Assembly (NCBI GenBank): GCA_963771075.1
Contig: CAVYSE010000028.1
Span: 64,001 to 128,000, forward strand
From: a candidate division FCPU426 bacterium
GTDB taxonomy: Bacteria; Oederibacteriota; Muellerivitia; Muellerivitales; Muellerivitaceae
Direction: 5' to 3'
Length of the DNA stretch: 64,000 nucleotides
Below are positions 42,194-51,652 of this stretch, one piece after another (positions within the stretch are counted from its first letter, which is position 1; each line of letters starts with the position of its first letter). The notes under the pieces were generated by a model that worked only from the letters and a program-made list of their open reading frames with translations, did not search any database and was not told the origin of the DNA. The translations under genes and the position numbers were made by a program.

Positions 42194-43561
42194 ATGAGAA
42201 GAATGAAAAGCGTGAATGGCTCTAACAAATATCTTTTTTTAGGTCTTTTTCTTCTTCTCTTCGTTTTGCGCACGGCCTTCGGCTTGAGCGACGAATTCAT
42301 GGAAAACGACCGTCTTCAAACCTACCTGATCGGTTTGAAATGGTATTGTACGGGCGATTGGCCTTATTTCGGGCCCGACCTGGTTTTCTTGAGCACCCTG
42401 CGGGGCCAGATTCCCGGGGCCTTGGAATCTTTCGTCGTGGGCGGGCCCTTCTTCGTCCTTCCCATCCCCGAAGCTCCCTTTCTTTTCCTCAATCTCCTTT
42501 CCCTTTCTTCCATTGCCCTTTTGAGCTGGTATCTTTCCAAGCGGATCTTATCCATCCCTTTCCTTTTCATCTTCGCCTGGATTTCCCTCCTCCCCTGGAC
42601 CCTGAACCAATCCACCTGGGTTTTGAACCCGAGTTACCTGCTTTTCGGAAGCGTGATCTTTTCCATTGGGCTAATGGAAGCCATTCCCGCCCTTTCCATC
42701 CAATTCCTGAAACCCGCCCAGGCCCTGGCCTGGATGGGATTCGGGCTCTGTTGGGACATGCAGTTTCATTTTTCGTGGATACTATTGGCGCCCTATGTGC
42801 CCATCGCGCTTTTGTTATATAGCCGGAAGGCGGGTTGGGGCCAGGTCCCGAAGCTTTTGTTTTATTTCGGCTTGGGCGCCCTGGTACCCGGGTCCTTGAT
42901 CCTTCCGACCCTGATTCGCTACGGCTGGCACTGCCTTTTTACAGGCGAAAGCACCTTCATTCTTTTCAACTTGGATCATGCCCTGTCCTTTTTTACCATG
43001 TTGGCCCGCTACCTTTCCCTGGCCTGTTACGAGATTCCCCGTTTTGTCGGGAACCACACAAGCGACCGATGGGAGTTCCTGACGGTAAAGGACCCCTGGT
43101 TGTTCCCCTTCGCGATGTTTCTGCTCCTCGTGGGATGGATCCAGCCCCTTGTGATGCTATGGAAGGGAGGCATTCAACCTCTTCTTTCCCTCCCAAAGCG
43201 AATCCCGAATGGCGGTCGCCCGGGTGAGATGCCGGTTTTATGGCTCGCTTGGTCCGCGTTTTTCTTGTATTACATCAGTTTTTGGTTCACTCAAAAGGAA
43301 CCCTTCGCCCATATCGCTTACGTCTATTTCCCTATCGTGACCGTCTTCTCTTTTTATATCTGGGACCGGTTCACCCCCCAACCCTTTTGGAGGAAATTCG
43401 GGGTCCTTTGCCTGACGGCCGGTTTCTTTTTACAAACGGGACTAACGCTCTATTGGATCCCCCGGCGGTCCCTTTACCTCAACCGAAACCAGGTGGTCCA
43501 ATCCATCCAAGAGAAAAATTACCACATTCTGGGCGAGCGCAGGCCCGGCGCCCTTTATTAA
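42194..43561 (+). CDS. Polytopic membrane protein, GT-C-like (copy 1)
   Basis: 455 aa, about 11 TM helices, WPYFGPD...QIPGAL; paralog of 50285-51652. Confidence 0.75.
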   Translation: MRRMKSVNGSNKYLFLGLFLLLFVLRTAFGLSDEFMENDRLQTYLIGLKWYCTGDWPYFGPDLVFLSTLRGQIPGALESFVVGGPFFVLPIPEAPFLFLNLLSLSSIALLSWYLSKRILSIPFLFIFAWISLLPWTLNQSTWVLNPSYLLFGSVIFSIGLMEAIPALSIQFLKPAQALAWMGFGLCWDMQFHFSWILLAPYVPIALLLYSRKAGWGQVPKLLFYFGLGALVPGSLILPTLIRYGWHCLFTGESTFILFNLDHALSFFTMLARYLSLACYEIPRFVGNHTSDRWEFLTVKDPWLFPFAMFLLLVGWIQPLVMLWKGGIQPLLSLPKRIPNGGRPGEMPVLWLAWSAFFLYYISFWFTQKEPFAHIAYVYFPIVTVFSFYIWDRFTPQPFWRKFGVLCLTAGFFLQTGLTLYWIPRRSLYLNRNQVVQSIQEKNYHILGERRPGALY

Positions 43562-43698
43562 GAACCGCGAACAAATACCTAATTTCGCCACAGAAACGCG
43601 GAGATACAGTTAAGAATTTGTAACCCCCCAAAAATGAACAAGATTTAAAAACTGTGCCTCTGTGGTGAAAGGGGTCTTGTTACTGTCTTTTAACCAAG

Positions 43699-43977
43699 AT
43701 GAGCCGGATCATTTATTCCCTGTATAAGGACTATTCGACAGGGCGTTATTCTCTCGCTGAAATAACTAAGAGGTACTGGAATAAAGGGTTGGTGGTCCGG
43801 AAAAGCAAAAAGATTCTTTCCAAGAGTACGGTTTATAAAATTCTAACTAACCGGATGTATACGGGGGTGTTCCAATGGAGAGATATAAATTACCGGGGTA
43901 AGTACAAGCCTATCATTCCGCAAAAACTTTGGGATAAAACCCAGAAGGTAATGGAAAAACACTTCAAGTTAAGATAA
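43699..43977 (+). pseudogene. Large serine recombinase fragment (recombinase DNA-binding domain only)
   Basis: SKSTVYKILTNRMYTG...YRGKYKPIIPQKLWDKTQ signature; no catalytic resolvase domain and no zinc ribbon. Confidence 0.8.
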
Positions 43978-43991
43978 TCAGTAGTACTGAG

Positions 43992-44019
43992 TGTTCCTTT
44001 TGGGTCCCCGTCGCGGACA
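43992..44019. repeat. att-like site 1
   Basis: tgttccttttggg-TC-cccgtcgcggaca. Confidence 0.75.
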
Positions 44020-44046
44020 GCCCGTTTGGACTAGATTTACAATTCC

Positions 44047-44322
44047 CTAGGACGTTTCATTTACTCTAAGACCCTTAAGTTTCACGGCAACCGACTTCAA
44101 TATTTCAGGCCGGGGATAGTTATAGACGCCTATCACTTTCTCTATACTGGCTAAATGATTGACGACTTGATCAATCGACTTATTTTTCAAAATTATTTTT
44201 ATAATTCCCGGGATATAAACGTCATATTCATCATGAGCATTCGGCTGATCTGAAACTCCGATTGGATCCCAATCACGAATTAAAATTTCATGTATTTTTT
44301 TAAATAATTCTTCGTTTTTCAT
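44047..44322 (-). CDS. Small hypothetical protein with WDPIGV...DEYD motif (cassette gene 1)
   Basis: AT-rich ORF filling the space between att-like sites 1 and 2; likely start MKNEEL at 44322. Confidence 0.75.
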   Translation of the reverse strand: MKNEELFKKIHEILIRDWDPIGVSDQPNAHDEYDVYIPGIIKIILKNKSIDQVVNHLASIEKVIGVYNYPRPEILKSVAVKLKGLRVNETS

Positions 44323-44351
44323 TTCATACTCTTGCTTTTTATTTCCGAGCA

Positions 44352-44379
44352 TGTCCAATGCGGGTCCCCGTCGTGGACA
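44352..44379. repeat. att-like site 2
   Basis: tgtccaatgcggg-TC-cccgtcgtggaca. Confidence 0.8.
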
Positions 44380-44397
44380 GCTTTAAAACCCAACTTT

Positions 44398-44745
44398 TTA
44401 ATACTTCCTGTGACAACTTGAACATTTATTTAAGTGACCAGAAACAGCCTTTAATATCCAATACGAAACATTCCAATTGAGCCTTTTCCCACAGTGGGGA
44501 CAAGCAAAACGGACCATTGGCCAGAAGCCAAGAAACATGAGTACTGCGAAACAAATTTCCAAGCAAATAGAAGTCGGATCGCTTTTCAACATTGAGCTTG
44601 GGAAGTGTTTTGAAAAAGAATAAATCAATAAAAATAAGATGCCCATTGTAGCAAAAAACCAAACTACAGTTTTTCGAACATTAGCCAAAGTCGCTTTTCG
44701 TACGGAGAGCATTTCTAATAAGATGAATTTAGAGCGATTCGCCAT
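44398..44745 (-). CDS. Two-TM protein with C-terminal zinc ribbon (cassette gene 2)
   Basis: CPHC...CSSC; RBS aaaggtga; fills the space between att-like sites 2 and 3. Confidence 0.7.
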   Translation of the reverse strand: MANRSKFILLEMLSVRKATLANVRKTVVWFFATMGILFLLIYSFSKHFPSSMLKSDPTSICLEICFAVLMFLGFWPMVRFACPHCGKRLNWNVSYWILKAVSGHLNKCSSCHRKY

Positions 44746-44767
44746 TGGTCACCTTTCTAAAATCTAT

Positions 44768-44795
44768 TGTCCACGACGGGTCCCCGTCGTGGACA
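44768..44795. repeat. att-like site 3 (perfect dyad)
   Basis: tgtccacgacggg-TC-cccgtcgtggaca, 13-bp perfect inverted arms. Confidence 0.8.
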
Positions 44796-44852
44796 CCTAA
44801 AACCCTTAATAAACTCTATTTTATCCTTTTTGTCGAAATGACGGCAGAATAC

Positions 44853-44878
44853 TTGACATAATGTCTCATATATGAGAC
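44853..44878 (+). promoter_or_regulatory. Toxin-antitoxin promoter with palindromic operator
   Basis: TTGACA at 44853-44858; palindrome gtctcatatatgagac at 44863-44878. Confidence 0.65.
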
Positions 44879-44887
44879 TTTTATTAA

Positions 44888-45205
44888 GTGATATCAACAC
44901 TGCCACAATGCGTGAAAGAGATCGCAGAATTCCCCCAAGATGTACGGGAAGATCTCGCCGACGCTTTAGCACGATTGGATGAAGGTCACACGCTTTCCAT
45001 GCCCCTGTCCCGGCCGATGCCTTCAATTGGAAAGGGTGTACATGAATTGAGATTCAGGGATCGTGCAGGAATTTATCGGGTGATCTATATTTTGGTTGGC
45101 GCGGGAATCATTTATTTGGTTCATGCATTTGTGAAAAAAGACAAGAAGACGCCGATGCCGAATATTGATTTGGCGAAAAGACGCTTAAAGGAAGTGAAAA
45201 GATGA
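44888..45205 (+). CDS. RelE/ParE-superfamily (HigB/Gp49-like) toxin
   Basis: SRPMPSIGKGVHELR...YRVIY...LVHAFVKK...TP. Confidence 0.9.
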   Translation: MISTLPQCVKEIAEFPQDVREDLADALARLDEGHTLSMPLSRPMPSIGKGVHELRFRDRAGIYRVIYILVGAGIIYLVHAFVKKDKKTPMPNIDLAKRRLKEVKR

Positions 45206-45489
45206 AACATAAAAGTACGGCGGTTGAAATTGCGAAATTGGTAGGTATTTCTCCAGCGAGAGGAATGGAGGCTATTATCAAAGCACAACTGATAACAGCT
45301 GTTTTGCAAGCCATTCAAGTTAAGAAAATGACTCATCAGGAACTCGCTAAGCGCGCAAAGCTCCCCAGGAGCGCCGTGACGGGTATTCTTTCTGGCAGTT
45401 TGCAGAAGGTCACCATTGATCGAGTTCTGAGACTCATTGAAGCGGCGGGTCTTATCGCGGAGATTCGAATCAGAAAATCTGCCGCCTAA
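45202..45489 (+). CDS. XRE-family HTH antitoxin (HigA-like)
   Basis: MTHQELAKRAKLPRSAVT HTH; ATGA overlap with the toxin gene. Confidence 0.88.
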   Translation: MKHKSTAVEIAKLVGISPARGMEAIIKAQLITAVLQAIQVKKMTHQELAKRAKLPRSAVTGILSGSLQKVTIDRVLRLIEAAGLIAEIRIRKSAA

Positions 45490-45623
45490 AGAAAGTTCTG
45501 GGGGAACATTACCGAATAAAAACAAAGATAGCATGTATGGGCCAGCGACCTGCGTAGTAGCTTGATCAATAGTAGCTGATCAAAAACGCGGGTTGCTCCT
45601 GTTAAGGAGCCTGAACATTGGGG

Positions 45624-45895
45624 TCACCTATGAAAAAGAATGTCCAGGCAAAAGCGTAGTATCACGGCCCCAAGTCCAACCTGAGTCTCAAAGGACTACA
45701 AGTCAGTCACCTATTCGCGGTTGTTTCACCGCACGATAACGTTGGACCCGGCCGCTCAATCACCTATGAAAAAGAATGTCCAGGCAAAAGCGTAGTATCA
45801 CGGCCCCAAGTCCAACCTGAGTCTCAAAGGACTACAAGTCAGTCACCTATTCGCGGTTGTTTCACCGCACGATAACGTTGGACCCGGCCGCTCAA
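45624..45895. repeat. Perfect 136-bp tandem duplication
   Basis: 45624-45759 is identical to 45760-45895. Confidence 0.95.
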
Positions 45896-45925
45896 TCAGG
45901 CCAAGGACCTCAACTCTTGCGGGTT
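45790..45925 (-). ncRNA. Putative bridge/seek RNA of the IS1111-type element (ends approximate)
   Basis: Non-coding region 3' of the transposase; segments match the target (ggcctga, gggtc) and the circle junction (gttatc, ataggtga). Confidence 0.7.
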
Positions 45926-45928
45926 GTG

Positions 45929-46951
45929 TCAGACCCCGTCGGAGCTGGCCGGGCAGTCCTCAAAAGCTTCCTTCTTTCGTAACATATGAAAGATGCTTTT
46001 CAGCATAGCCCTTGCTACTGCTATTCGTCCCGCGTTATTCCCATGCTTCTTCTTCACCCTCGTGTATAAGGTCCCATACCGTCGGGTTTTGCGAATGGCA
46101 TGAAGCGAGTTCTCAACCAATATCCAGCGAATCCATTTAGAACCCTGTTTGGTGATGTGGCCGTTGTGGCTTTTTCCCCCTGATGCGTGAACACTGGGGA
46201 CCAATCCACCATAAGAACATAGATGTTCCGCGTCCGGGAACCGGCGAATATCCCCAATCTCGCTCAAAATTAATAAAGCCGAAAAGGCACCCACGCCTGG
46301 CATGGTCATCATCAGCTGGGCTTCCGGGCTTTCTGCTGCCATTTTCTTGATCACCTCTTCTGATTTGGCGATCTCTTGGCCTAGTTCCCGGATTACTTCC
46401 ATATATCCGTCCAGTTCCAAACGGTAGCAAGGCCGGGTACCTACCGTGGCAAGTTCGCGGAAGTTCTTTATTCCGAATCGGTTTTTAGTAACGGGTTCGA
46501 TTCCCGCCTTGGTCATGACCGAAGTCATCCGGTTTTTGGCTTGTGTTCTCAATTGCACCAGGGAAGCCCGGTACCTAAGGATTTCCCGTAAGTCGCGGAT
46601 CTCTCGGGGTGGCACATAGGCTCGTGGCAGCAGATCCACCCGCAAAAGTTGAGCCAGGATTCCCGAATCAATTTTATCCGTCTTGATCTTGGCCGAGGCT
46701 ATGGCTTTGACCTTTTGGGGGTGGGCCAATACCAGGTTGGGGAATCGATCCTCGATGAGTTCGTAAAAGTGATACCAATGACCTGTGGCTTCTACTACGA
46801 CCTGGCTACTCACGGGTTGCTTCTTGAAATAAGCCTTTAAAGTATCCGCGTCGTTCTTCAGATCGACTTGTTCCAGCACCTTTCCTTTCTCATTCACTCT
46901 CGTGACGTAGGATGTTTTCTGGTGTAGGTCTACTCCGATATACTGTCCCAC
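45929..46951 (-). CDS. IS110-family DEDD transposase/recombinase
   Basis: IGVDLH, VVVEATG, KTDKID, PGVG and GLVPSVHASGG motifs. Confidence 0.95.
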   Translation of the reverse strand: MGQYIGVDLHQKTSYVTRVNEKGKVLEQVDLKNDADTLKAYFKKQPVSSQVVVEATGHWYHFYELIEDRFPNLVLAHPQKVKAIASAKIKTDKIDSGILAQLLRVDLLPRAYVPPREIRDLREILRYRASLVQLRTQAKNRMTSVMTKAGIEPVTKNRFGIKNFRELATVGTRPCYRLELDGYMEVIRELGQEIAKSEEVIKKMAAESPEAQLMMTMPGVGAFSALLILSEIGDIRRFPDAEHLCSYGGLVPSVHASGGKSHNGHITKQGSKWIRWILVENSLHAIRKTRRYGTLYTRVKKKHGNNAGRIAVARAMLKSIFHMLRKKEAFEDCPASSDGV

Positions 46952-47091
46952 GGCTGCACCTCCTAAGCGTTTTGCACCACCTGCAAAGGTGAGTGCCTTT
47001 TCGACTCTGGGTTTATCCTAGAGCCTCGTCCCACTTAAGTGGAGACGCTCTACGCTTGGAGCTCTGCAGCCTTTTTCATGTTATCAGGTCT

Positions 47092-47486: not shown

Positions 47487-47650
47487 ATAGCTATTAGTTA
47501 TTAGCTGTTAGCGTTTAGCTGCGGCCTAAACCAAGAGCAAGAAGCTAACACCTTAGGGGAGAATTCCATTAGTTGGCGGTCGACAGTCGACGGTCGGCAG
47601 TTAGGCCTTTAAAGCTGGCTGTCGACAGTGGGCTGTGGACTGTCGACGGC
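47487..47650. repeat. Degenerate heptamer arrays in inverted arrangement
   Basis: gctatta/gttatta/gctgtta/gcgttta and ggtcgac/agtcgac/tgtcgac/tgtggac units. Confidence 0.6.
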
Positions 47651-47666
47651 CTTTGGAGGCTCCGCT

Positions 47667-50033
47667 ATGTCACAATCCCCATCTACCCCCGGTACACCCG
47701 AAGAATCGCCAAAAGCAAACCCGCCCGAAATCCTGGTCGTTTCCCTGGACCAGATGCTGGTCGTGCCGGAGGACAACCCCCGGGGGGCCTACCCCCAGCA
47801 AGATGTCTTGGACATGGCCCGAACCCTCAAGCAGTCCGGACAGGAGGATCCCATCCTCCTGAGGCGCCGGACGCCCGAGGAAAGGGCTCAGGCCCACCCG
47901 GACATTCCCTATCGGCTGGTAGGGGGATTCCTCCGTGTTGCCGCCGCCCCCCTGGCGGGCCTGGCCGCCCTTGAAGCCATTGTGCGGGATATGACCCCCC
48001 AAAAGGCACTGCAAGCCGCAATCCTGGACAATGTTCGTAAAGACATGAATTGGCTGGCCTGGGCCCAATCCGCCGATAGCCTGATTAAGGACGGAATGAA
48101 GCTCCAAGAAGCCTCCGATGCACTTGCGAAAGATGCCTCATGGGTCGGAAAACTGCTAAAACTGTTGTCATTATTGGATTTTCCAACACGCCAGCTCATT
48201 TCGGAAAATTTCCGGAAAAAGGACGGTTACGACCTTCCGGAATCCCATGCCCACTGTTTGGAAGACCTGGCGACCGGGGGGCCAAACGATCAGGTTCTTA
48301 TAGGTAATGCCATACGAGTGGTAATAGACCGCCAAATGCCTTTTGAACTTGTGAAAAAGCTGGTCGAATGGATCCAAAAGGGAAACAGCCCTGAAAGCTT
48401 CCCCCAAGACGGCAAAACAGAGGTCAAGAAGGGGGTTAAAAACCAGAGGTTCGACCCCGCCGACCCCCTGGCCAAGCTTTGGCAAGACCTGCCCCGCACC
48501 ATCAAGGTGCGTCCGACACCCAAGGGCTATAAGGCGGTACTGGCCCTTTCTAAAGACGAAGCGGTACTGGCCCTTTATGGCGCCCTGGGCACGGTGGAGG
48601 AGGCCAAGAGGCTTCAAGGCCAGCCCCATGACCCCCGGTTCGCGGCTGCTTTGGCTGACCTCATTCCTGGAGGTAGGCCTGGTGGAATTCTGAATGCGTC
48701 CTTTCCGGCCTCCCCCGCCAGCCTGGGCCTGGGCTCCTGGCTTAAAGGGGTATGGGCGGCATGGATGGGCAGTCTTAAAGCTGGCGGTCCGAAGACACCA
48801 GCTGACAGCCCACAGTCGTCGGTCGACAGCACGCCAAACCCCGGGACAATGGAAAAAACTATATGGGAACTCTTGGCGGGGATCCCTATCACCGCCAAGA
48901 TAAGGGCCAAAGTCAAGAAGGGGGAAAGGCCGACCTTTTGGGAAGTTCTCATCCTCCTTTTAGCCATCCTTGGGATGTTTTTGGGCTTGCTGGGGAAATA
49001 CCTTTGGAAATTTGCCCAGGGGGGTTGGCGTTTGGCGAAGACCTTCCTCGGAAAGGCCTTCCGGCTCCTGGGGGAGGTGGTAGGCAAGCCCGCCAAGAAA
49101 ATAACCCAGGGCGTGGTGGGTATCGCCTTGGTAGTGGGCCTGGCTTATGGGCTCTATCTATTCTTCTTCCACCCGGCAGGGCTAAGGGGCTTGTTGAGCC
49201 GGACCGCCTCCGGGGCAATCCATTGGGTAGGGTCTTGGGTAAACCCTTGGGAAGGCGATACGCACACCGATTCCCCTAAGGAATCGGTGCAATCAAGTCA
49301 TGGGCCTCAACCCGAAGTTTCGGCCCAGATGAAGCCAGAGTCGGTACCTACGCCTGGTCTGAAACCTCCGGTTTCGGACCAAGCCTTGGCAGTACCCATA
49401 TCTAAATCAGATATGGGTACCCCTGTTCCCACGCCTGAGGTTTTTAAAACTAAGCGCCTAAAACTCAAAACTTCTAAATCTCTGAAAAAGTCCATTCCGG
49501 TGGCAGTGGTTTCAACGCAAAACTCAACACCTAAAACTGAGAACGCGGCCCCATCGGGCCAGTCCCAGTTGGACCTTCTCAACCAAATCAACGCGGAATC
49601 AAAAACCGCCCAGGCTTTCGCCCAGGCCTTTTACGCGGCGGATTATAACGACCTGTTGGGCAGGAGAACCAAACTCAACAAATATTTGAGGCCAGGCTAT
49701 TCCGGCGCTTTTTTCAAAGCCTTTCCAACCGGTTTGAAGATCAAGGAAATCGGCGAACATAAGCTGGTTGAAAGTTTCAAACCCTCGGGCGACGCGAAAC
49801 TGTTGAGGTCGGACGATCAATCGGAGGAATTCCAAGTGGAGGGCACCTTGGTCACCCGGAGTGAGATGGATATTACGGACCCCGTCACCACCCAAAAACC
49901 CGCGGGGCTCGTGATTGACCTCTCCCGTGAGCCGGAGTCGAAGGGGCTGGTGACCGGGGTGAGGGAAATGGTTTTTCCGGGAAAAAAGGTCAGCCCGGAA
50001 ATACAGGGGCCAGGCCAACATTTAACACTTTGA
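47667..50033 (+). CDS. ParB N-terminal domain protein with TM helices and a C-terminal extracytoplasmic domain
   Basis: NPR...GQEDPILL...YRLVGGFLRVAA...DNVRKD plus HTH; two hydrophobic segments; RBS ggagg before ATG 47667. Confidence 0.75.
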   Translation: MSQSPSTPGTPEESPKANPPEILVVSLDQMLVVPEDNPRGAYPQQDVLDMARTLKQSGQEDPILLRRRTPEERAQAHPDIPYRLVGGFLRVAAAPLAGLAALEAIVRDMTPQKALQAAILDNVRKDMNWLAWAQSADSLIKDGMKLQEASDALAKDASWVGKLLKLLSLLDFPTRQLISENFRKKDGYDLPESHAHCLEDLATGGPNDQVLIGNAIRVVIDRQMPFELVKKLVEWIQKGNSPESFPQDGKTEVKKGVKNQRFDPADPLAKLWQDLPRTIKVRPTPKGYKAVLALSKDEAVLALYGALGTVEEAKRLQGQPHDPRFAAALADLIPGGRPGGILNASFPASPASLGLGSWLKGVWAAWMGSLKAGGPKTPADSPQSSVDSTPNPGTMEKTIWELLAGIPITAKIRAKVKKGERPTFWEVLILLLAILGMFLGLLGKYLWKFAQGGWRLAKTFLGKAFRLLGEVVGKPAKKITQGVVGIALVVGLAYGLYLFFFHPAGLRGLLSRTASGAIHWVGSWVNPWEGDTHTDSPKESVQSSHGPQPEVSAQMKPESVPTPGLKPPVSDQALAVPISKSDMGTPVPTPEVFKTKRLKLKTSKSLKKSIPVAVVSTQNSTPKTENAAPSGQSQLDLLNQINAESKTAQAFAQAFYAADYNDLLGRRTKLNKYLRPGYSGAFFKAFPTGLKIKEIGEHKLVESFKPSGDAKLLRSDDQSEEFQVEGTLVTRSEMDITDPVTTQKPAGLVIDLSREPESKGLVTGVREMVFPGKKVSPEIQGPGQHLTL

Positions 50034-50284: not shown

Positions 50285-51652
50285 TTGAGGCGCATGAAAA
50301 ACACATCCCTATCCCCTGAAATTTCCTTTGTAAGCCTCTTCCTCTTTCTTTTTGTGTTTCGAACGCTTTTCGGCTTGAGCGGTGATTTTATGGATCCGGA
50401 TCACCTTCAAACTTTCCTGATCGGTTTGAAATGGTTCACCGAGGGAGGATGGCCATATTTTGGGCCGGATTTGGTCGTTCAGGGAGCCCTGCGGGGCCAG
50501 ATTCCCGGGGCCTTGGAATCTTTCGTCGTGGGCGGGCCCTTCTTCGTCCTTCCCATCCCCGAAGCTCCCTTTCTTTTCCTTAATCTCCTTTCCCTTTCTT
50601 CCATTTCCCTTTTGAGCTGGTATCTTTCCAAGCGGATCTTATCCATCCCTTTCCTTTTCATCTTCGCCTGGATTTCCCTCCTCCCCTGGACCCTGAACCA
50701 ATCCACCTGGGTTTTGAACCCGAGTTACCTGCTTTTCGGAAGCGTGATCTTTTCCATTGGGCTAATGGAAGCCATTCCCGCCCTTTCCATCCAATTCCTG
50801 AAACCCGCCCAAGCCCTGGCCTGGATGGGATTCGGGCTCTGTTGGGATATGCAGTTTCATTTTTCGTGGATACTGTTGGCGCCCTATGTGCCCATCGCGC
50901 TTTTGTTATATAGCCGAAAGGCGGGTTGGGGCCAGGTCCCGAGGCTTTTGTTTTATTTCGCCTTGGGCGCCCTGGTGCCCGGGTCCTTGATCCTTCCGAC
51001 CCTGATTCGCTACGGCTGGCATAGCCTATGGATCGGCGGCAGTACGACCGTTCTTTTTAACGCCAATCATGCCCGTGATTTTTTAACTATCCTGGCCCGT
51101 TATCTTTCCCTTGCCTGTTATGAGATCCCCCAGTTCATCGGCGGCCACACGAGCGAGCGTTGGGAGTTCATTACCCGTACGGCTCCATGGTTGTTCCCCT
51201 TCGCGATCTTTCTGCTCCTCGTGGGATGGATTCAGCCGTTCGTCATGTTGTGGAAGGGCTGGGTCCAACCCCTGGTCTACTTAAAAAGGAGGGGCCCGGA
51301 TAGCCTTCGATCGGGCGAGGGCCCGGTGTACCTATTAGCCGGATCGGCTCTCCTTTTTCTTTACTTGAGCTTTTGGTTTACGGAAAAGGAACCTGTTTCC
51401 CATATCGCTTACGTCTATTTCCCCATCGTGACCGTCTTCTCTTTATATATCTGGGACGGATTCGCCCCCCAGTCCTTTTGGAGGAAATTCGGGGTCCTTT
51501 GCCTGGCGGCCAGTCTTTTCTTCCAGGGCGGGGTGATGATGGACCGGTTGCCCCGCCAGTCCCTCTACCTAAACCGGAGCCAGGCGGTAAATGCCATTCA
51601 GGGAAATAACTTTCATTTACTGGGGGAGCGCAGGCCGGGTAGCCGAAATTAA
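50285..51652 (+). CDS. Polytopic membrane protein, GT-C-like (copy 2)
   Basis: 455 aa, colinear with 42194-43561. Confidence 0.75.
   Translation: MRRMKNTSLSPEISFVSLFLFLFVFRTLFGLSGDFMDPDHLQTFLIGLKWFTEGGWPYFGPDLVVQGALRGQIPGALESFVVGGPFFVLPIPEAPFLFLNLLSLSSISLLSWYLSKRILSIPFLFIFAWISLLPWTLNQSTWVLNPSYLLFGSVIFSIGLMEAIPALSIQFLKPAQALAWMGFGLCWDMQFHFSWILLAPYVPIALLLYSRKAGWGQVPRLLFYFALGALVPGSLILPTLIRYGWHSLWIGGSTTVLFNANHARDFLTILARYLSLACYEIPQFIGGHTSERWEFITRTAPWLFPFAIFLLLVGWIQPFVMLWKGWVQPLVYLKRRGPDSLRSGEGPVYLLAGSALLFLYLSFWFTEKEPVSHIAYVYFPIVTVFSLYIWDGFAPQSFWRKFGVLCLAASLFFQGGVMMDRLPRQSLYLNRSQAVNAIQGNNFHLLGERRPGSRN

Follow-up and report, generated by a model that had tools for sequence, protein, structure and literature searches.

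Mobile gene cassettes between 28-bp sites in a bacterial genome and its family, and a short serine recombinase as their probable enzyme

A stretch of 64,000 nucleotides from a candidate division FCPU426 bacterium (the window) carries, next to a fragment of a serine recombinase gene, a run of small genes separated by similar 28-bp sequences, and the question raised by this locus is whether these genes are mobile cassettes and, if they are, which recombinase moves them. The initial annotation had read the run as an integron-like array built on serine recombinase sites, and most of what it described was found as claimed (Table 1). The three 28-bp sites at 43992, 44352 and 44768 are co-oriented with a spacing of 360 and 416 bp, every site reads 13-TC-13 around the central TC with site 3 forming a perfect dyad, the stop of the PF07508 ORF lies 14 bp before site 1, and each interval holds one AT-rich minus-strand gene that starts 29 and 22 bp from the next site in cassettes 1 and 2, respectively. 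Two points had been missed: a third cassette, containing a toxin-antitoxin pair, follows site 3, and the array is one of 17 in the genome.

Table 1. Features of the cassette array in the window and the intact recombinase gene on another contig.
Feature	Coordinates	Strand	Remarks
5'-truncated short serine recombinase stub	43694..43977	+	PF07508; ORF 43699-43977, 92 aa
14-bp spacer, recombinase stop to site 1	43978..43991	+	short imperfect palindrome; identical in 4/4 genomic copies
Site 1, recombinase-proximal, weak left arm	43992..44019	+	arm complementarity 7/13
Cassette 1, 360 bp TC to TC	44005..44364	-	gene 44047-44322, 91 aa
Site 2	44352..44379	+	arm complementarity 10/13
Cassette 2, 416 bp TC to TC	44365..44780	-	gene 44398-44745, 115 aa
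Site 3, perfect 13-TC-13 dyad	44768..44795	+	arm complementarity 13/13
Cassette 3, toxin-antitoxin pair	44781..45520	+	Gp49/RelE-like 44888-45205; HTH 45202-45489 (Pfam)
IS110-family element, neighbour outside the system	45614..47088	-	transposase 45929-46951; Pfam
Intact short recombinase gene	G000:C8:80002-80835		277 aa; PF00239 and PF07508

The stub ORF contains the recombinase domain alone (Pfam search, PF07508, E 6.6e-12) and corresponds to residues 186-277 of the intact protein encoded on contig C8 of the same genome (G000), with two residue differences. From 43694 on, its DNA shows 96% nucleotide identity with three other genomic copies. The left arm of site 1 is the same in the four recombinase copies, while its right arm and all the downstream DNA differ. 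The gene stops of cassettes 1 and 2 are 27 and 18 bp from the previous site, and the GC content of the two intervals is 0.355 and 0.369 compared to 0.53 for the genome.

The length of the cassette 1 protein is counted from an SD-preceded ATG; a longer TTG start falls inside site 2. No Pfam, NCBIfam or PADLOC match was found for this protein, a weak atlas lead points to a cluster with DUF1871 in 16% of its members, and the cassette was not found in the 30 relatives searched. The cassette 2 protein consists of a hydrophobic N-terminal part followed by a CxxC...CxxC zinc-ribbon-like end; its zinc-ribbon Pfam matches were all sub-threshold and the protein search gave no homologue. The stretch after site 3 has a palindrome at 44863-44878, ahead of the toxin-antitoxin pair, and this pair is counted as the third cassette because a copy of about 90% identity in a related genome (G054), where the similarity stops near 45520, lies between two sites. 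The right-hand site is missing in the present genome.

Two paralogous membrane protein genes of 455 aa without family hits (window 42194-43561 and 50285-51652) flank an inserted region of 6.7 kb, and a tandem run of such genes occurs at this place in relatives. In two genomes of the same genus the host genes on either side are present but neither sites nor a recombinase stub, and in a third the first of these genes are followed by other DNA. The array in the window is therefore a lineage-specific insertion.

A total of 105 sites with a PWM score of at least 16 were found in the 4.39-Mb genome as opposed to none in each of two local dinucleotide shuffles, and the site family is thus not a product of chance. 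The sites are grouped into 17 arrays of 2-13 sites and 15 singles, and 73 of the 76 neighbouring site pairs within 6 kb are co-oriented. The 68 intervals have a median unit size of 778 bp, and 33 of them contain a single gene of at least 70 aa, the median distance between its stop and the site being about 19 bp. Excluding the ORFs of group II introns and IS110 elements, 92 of the 106 interval ORFs of at least 70 aa are on the minus strand. Toxin-antitoxin-type Pfam names were obtained for 33 of the 137 interval proteins scanned (151 ORFs were listed and 14 short ones dropped), and 60, which may include spurious ORFs, had no match. PADLOC returned one weak match for 39 cargo proteins without a known family.

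The 17 arrays are located at unrelated loci with no single conserved anchor gene on the chromosome, and they do not occur at tRNA or tmRNA genes; a single site has a tRNA gene within 2 kb. A search that allowed one mismatch detected the site in 26 of 30 relatives from the family and in the one other genome of the same order. None of 67 other genomes of the phylum has it at the same stringency, and the reversed control also gave none. No site was found in viral contigs by an exact pattern search, and the Rfam scan gave chance hits only. The initial annotation had also envisaged a dispersed repeat unlinked to large serine recombinases, which does not describe this family: although it occurs throughout the genome, the motif is clustered, co-oriented and linked to the recombinase. 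Nor were the same genes found in relatives without flanking sites, as it had likewise envisaged.

Cassette 2 is 100% identical in a genome of a different genus (G051:C61), where it directly follows an intact short recombinase gene as the first unit and where its neighbours on the two sides are not those in the window. The right arm of site 2 accompanies the cassette into G051 and the left arm does not; a comparison of the two junctions shows left-arm differences as far as position 13 and identity from the TC onward. Fifteen unit pairs matching end to end were found among 359 units and 473 sites in 13 genomes, a comparison covering the whole of G000 and selected regions of the others. The two members come from different genomes in six of these pairs, and in ten they have different neighbours on either side; two pairs are part of an inverted duplication. 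Single units are shared between genera at 99-100% identity. In addition, one of four runs compared (run X2) has a contig in which a 495-bp cassette of another array is missing and its two flanks are precisely joined. Joints with short sides or with middles of unclear origin were left aside in the run comparison, and no circular junction was present in the contigs of these four runs. The identical cassette 2, the end-to-end pairs and the precise join bear out the mobility that had been proposed for the cassettes, and the intervals are mobile units with site-precise ends.

Sites with one flank in common (at least 97%, with intron-flanked sites and one duplication removed) were used to locate the point of exchange. 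The 17 pairs with the right flank alone in common have 36 mismatches in the left arm, none in the TC and six in the right arm. The 23 pairs with the left flank alone in common have none in the left arm, none in the TC and 19 in the right arm, the first of which is at position 18. The pairs in these counts are not independent, six of them being derived from the four recombinase copies of G000. This pattern places the exchange point within positions 14-17 of the 28, a bracket whose left edge (positions 12-13) is drawn from one pair, window and G051, and which includes the dyad centre at 14-15. The serine-type character predicted for the site is supported, in the form of a 13-2-13 dyad with the exchange bracketed around its centre.

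The genome contains four PF07508 matches and one PF00239 match, and the intact short recombinase is its sole gene with a resolvase domain. In this gene and in three 5'-truncated stubs, 14 bp separate the stop from a left arm that is the same in all four; the DNA past this arm differs. The 19 closest database proteins have 275-283 aa and 68-96% identity and all lack PF13408; the next relatives, at 61% identity or less, include zinc-ribbon forms. All 20 short proteins stop just before CxxCG, i.e. without zinc ribbon or coiled coil, and they form one side of a 100/100 branch in a comparison with 30 long relatives. The loss of these two parts is a trait of the clade. The short proteins retain the YxRVS motif, and Y16, R18, S20 and the DRLYR motif are invariant. 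In structure comparisons, both domains of an AlphaFold model (mean pLDDT 78, pTM 0.49) were matched by serine integrases. Hence the catalytic serine domain and the recombinase domain of large serine integrases are both present, and the zinc ribbon and coiled coil are missing in all 20 clade members. The initial annotation was right in recognising a recombinase fragment, but it is not from an ordinary large serine recombinase; it belongs to a conserved short form.

A tblastn search of the genome for a separately encoded zinc ribbon or coiled coil was negative (best E 0.15). A recombinase split by its own att site was considered and rejected, as every copy of the gene ends ahead of the site and the genome lacks a piece that would complete it. 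Plasmids gave no recombinase match at E<=1e-40. In the LI integrase, the recombinase domain is described as spanning 13 bp per half-site and the zinc domain as covering positions 16-24 (PMC3783163), and a protein without the zinc domain therefore fits a 13-2-13 site.

The short recombinase and the site are closely linked. The 3' end can be read in 12 copies of the short clade, and every one of them is followed by a site, or by the left arm of one, 8-36 bp past the stop. Four of these copies are in G000, one each in G051, G053, G054, G067, G070 and G072, and two on metagenome contigs; the site in G054 is interrupted by an intron, one contig (L058) breaks off past the left arm, and a frameshift is present in the G072 copy. 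Among the 89 loci with flanking DNA examined, none of the 77 long or CxxCG-bearing relatives has a site near the gene. The association of the sites with the recombinase that had been proposed is therefore borne out. The spacer motif of the recombinase tail precedes 14 of the 473 sites, and ten of the 14 are behind a recognisable recombinase 3' end.

Among the 30 relatives, the short recombinase is intact in four and a stub in two. Searches with the query used detected no short recombinase in 20 of the 26 site-bearing relatives, some of which have 15-38 site matches and are 89-99% complete; the draft state of the assemblies and the mobility of the gene may be the reason. Site-rich relatives in which it was not detected include G044, G047, G049 and G066. 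A source in trans had been postulated for the incomplete local gene, and an intact copy that could provide it does exist on another contig.

The intact gene is at the end of a nine-gene TraG/VirB4-like block that is syntenic in two genera (G000:C8:61900-73800 and G051:C61:9500-21400). The block encodes a TraG/VirB4-like ATPase, a GGDEF-TPR protein and six or seven proteins without Pfam hits, and it is possibly an undescribed conjugation or secretion module. ArdC was found upstream of the recombinase in G000, G054 and G067. No such element genes were present in the 40 kb upstream of the recombinase in G053.

We consider it probable that these arrays constitute an integron-like cassette system run by the short serine recombinase, which is the likely catalyst. 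A dimer of this protein would bind one symmetric 28-bp site, with 13 bp per arm, and exchange strands at the central TC. With one kind of site and no directionality module, any two co-oriented sites could excise the unit between them as a circle, the circle could enter any existing site, and the asymmetric TC would give every unit the same direction. Conjugative-type elements, at the end of which the intact gene is often located, would carry cassettes between genera; the recombinase would be provided in cis at the few loci that serve as platforms, and arrays without one, such as that in the window, would receive it in trans. The LI integrase with its coiled coil deleted is reported to be promiscuous but weak in intermolecular integration (PMC5499577), and by analogy excision by the short enzyme may be more efficient than integration, or a helper may be required.

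An alternative view is that the sites are att scars of larger tandem integrative elements and that the small units are passive deletion derivatives, as in SCC or Dehalococcoides islands. The position of the intact gene at the end of the nine-gene block on G000:C8 and G051:C61 is consistent with this, and so are the recombinase of G067, which lies within a 7-kb site-bounded unit, the recurrence of recombinase stubs of 520 to about 100 bp, and a toxin-antitoxin unit in G054 whose tail resembles the recombinase stop region. However, the recombinase-tail motif was found at only 14 of 473 sites, the typical unit is far smaller (median 778 bp) and in 33 of 68 intervals holds one gene ending about 19 bp from the site, single units travel alone between genera with 99-100% identity, and the arrays occupy many loci with one site near a tRNA gene. 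We regard this origin as unlikely for the arrays as a whole. The initial annotation had asked whether the intervals are eroded ends of large elements, which does not hold for them in general, yet a few units do end in eroded recombinase tails; since 14 of 473 sites carry such tails, deletions within larger elements may have given rise to some of the cassettes. Less likely still, and in our judgement improbable, is a short recombinase that only excises or resolves, with integration carried out by another enzyme or through a partner replacing the coiled coil. The small amount of intermolecular product from the coiled-coil-deleted LI integrase (PMC5499577) and the many site-rich genomes without a detected short recombinase would agree with such a division of labour, but no second candidate is linked to the arrays, the tblastn search for a zinc-ribbon or coiled-coil piece (best E 0.15) was negative, and the G053 gene has no element genes in the 40 kb upstream.

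The length of 28 bp could also be read as 11-6-11, i.e. as a dif-like target of a tyrosine recombinase, or the site could act as a folded single strand as attC does for IntI. A single core Xer-like gene, located at G000:C6:114198-115232 in this genome, indeed has the same range as the site, being present in 29 of 30 family genomes and one genome of the same order (E<=1e-60); its 345-aa product falls below the XerC, XerD, XerA and XerS cut-offs. This gene has a site of its own, a perfect 11-6-11 dif-like sequence just upstream (G000:C6:114166-114193; L209:6166-6193), and an AT-rich 11-6-11 site unlike the cassette site is kept beside it in four of four genomes (G000, G047, G049 and G051). The cassette site was accordingly rejected as the dif target of the host Xer, as far as sequence comparison can tell. 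The junction between the window and G051 would moreover imply partners that differ inside the supposed 6-bp spacer. No IntI was found over the cut-off in G000 (TIGR02249, 0 matches), and none of its eight tyrosine recombinase genes is near an array, the distance examined being 25 kb. With regard to folding, compensatory double changes between the arms are in mild excess (60 compared to 41 expected) and the arm pairs 9:20 and 6:23 covary (p 0.002 and 0.008), an excess that would not be expected from a pure double-strand model. On the other hand, the most variable arm pair, 10:19, shows no covariation (169 vs 166, p 0.38), and sites 1 and 2 fold poorly. Taken together, a tyrosine recombinase is very improbable. 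The least credible reading is a REP-like dispersed palindrome or a terminator to which insertions are simply attracted. There are some 100 copies per genome, the strong ones form hairpins, and group II introns use them as targets, but this reading leaves the strict co-orientation, the site-precise deletion and the recombinase adjacency without explanation and is contradicted, and largely refuted, by the exchange of arms at the dyad centre.

For the expression of the cassettes, a promoter beyond site 3 that the genes share had been proposed initially. The string at 44836-44808 is present as written, but a consensus promoter scan made no call there. This stretch is the left end of the third mobile cassette, its -35 hexamer differs in the G054 copy, and it is absent beside the identical cassette 2 in G051, so the shared promoter is not upheld. 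The cassette genes read towards the recombinase gene, which would leave no place for an integron-type Pc. No conserved promoter motif was found in the flanks of the sites. A promoter with its -35 in the site arm was also rejected, as -10 matches at 16-18 bp number 50 of 332, which does not exceed the 53-85 at control offsets. Site 3 scores as a terminator-like hairpin on the minus (gene) strand.

The arrays were compared with known systems of tandem mobile units. Integrons, sedentary chromosomal integrons and CALINs are described as co-oriented arrays of mostly one-gene cassettes with minimal spacers, with many toxin-antitoxin pairs and with recombinase-less arrays among them (bioRxiv 10.1101/2024.07.02.601686), and in these respects, including the co-oriented mobile cassettes, the present system is alike. 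It differs from them in the absence of IntI, in a 28-bp dyad in place of attC, in exchange at the dyad centre and in its many loci. A folded single-strand attC is not what we observed, given the 28-bp dyad and the pair 10:19 without covariation, together with only a mild overall excess of compensatory changes. Large serine integrases (LI/A118, Bxb1, phiC31, SPbeta; PMC3783163, PMC5499577) share the catalytic and recombinase domains, a 2-bp asymmetric centre and the 13-bp half-site contact. The present enzyme is, in contrast, short, without zinc ribbon or coiled coil, and has hundreds of targets; they use attP, attB, attL and attR, whereas one short symmetric type of site was seen here.

Staphylococcal SCC composite islands (CcrAB) also consist of tandem units between direct repeats and have a full-length serine recombinase of about 540 aa, with islands of many kb at one essential-gene locus; the NCBIfam matches in the CcrAB comparison were below cut-off. 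The ssrA islands of Dehalococcoides (DsiB) are reported to have tandem units between direct repeats, a serine recombinase and integrase-less units mobilised with others, the enzyme having about 540 aa and the islands many kb at one essential-gene locus (PMC3146451). In contrast to both, the present system has a 277-aa enzyme, at least 17 loci, a median unit of 778 bp and no tRNA or ssrA anchor. The site differs from that of pdif modules in being GC-rich, of other sequence and co-oriented, and a separate dif-like site exists by the Xer-like gene. In pdif modules, or dif-integrating elements (XerC/D), 28-bp sites bound small modules rich in toxin-antitoxin genes.

No earlier description of such serine-recombinase cassette arrays was found in the mainly open-access literature searched. 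From its sequence, the enzyme appears to be derived from large serine integrases by loss of the directionality module. We lean, with somewhat less assurance than for the system described above, towards a second and independently evolved integron-class system, with a minimised serine integrase, one 28-bp site, bidirectional action and a family-wide cassette pool. If the enzyme assignment is true, cassette arrays were invented with a different class of recombinase and with a much simpler site than that of integrons, and software for finding integrons would miss them. The enzyme would then resemble Cre in acting bidirectionally, as a serine recombinase whose site is shorter than those of known large serine integrases. 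The short protein would offer a natural test of the model that attributes the directionality of serine integrases to their zinc ribbon and coiled coil, and, with its compact size of 277 aa and a 28-bp site, it could become a useful tool. With about 100 junctions per genome and identical units across genera, this may be a main route of gene turnover in this soil/peat lineage.

Several additional features were found near the sites and in the genome. A group II intron of about 2 kb with a 529-aa RT abuts the outer edge of a site in either orientation (e.g. G000:C3:171335-173315), with about ten further near-full copies on C2, C3, C4, C5, C6, C9 and C21. A related group II element is likewise at the outer edge of a site in G067, and a second intron (458-aa RT) is inserted inside the right arm of a site in G054. 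Group II introns reportedly target the cassette site of integrons as well. A loose end at a site in run X1 was considered as a pseudo-site and rejected, as it matches the end of the second group II intron. Entry through degenerate terminal arms acting as pseudo-sites also received no clear support; the first sites are weaker in both arms and the last are not weaker. The right arm of three sites (G000:C11:133945, C26:73627 and C26:134325) is broken by the same hairpin of about 33 bp, and part of an array near a contig end is present as an inverted duplication (G000:C26:138321-143721), possibly an assembly artefact.

Two more dif-like copies were observed on G000:C12 at 14498 and 14579, 81 bp apart. 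This order may have a single-Xer system, possibly with pdif-like modules. GC skew and KOPS on 28 contigs located no terminus.

Finally, the IS110 element next to the array in the window has near-identical full-length copies on six other contigs, and an exact 136-bp tandem duplication (window 45624-45895) is found at the end of this copy. An inverted-repeat stretch at window 43580-43680, between the stop of the membrane-protein gene and the recombinase stub, appears similar to repeats that occur beside GxxExxY genes. Window 47628-50033 encodes an 801-aa ParB-like protein with a hydrophobic segment; the 3' part of this gene recurs about 200 bp past array-terminal sites on C3, C5, C9, C13 and C21 and also adjoins an array in G047.
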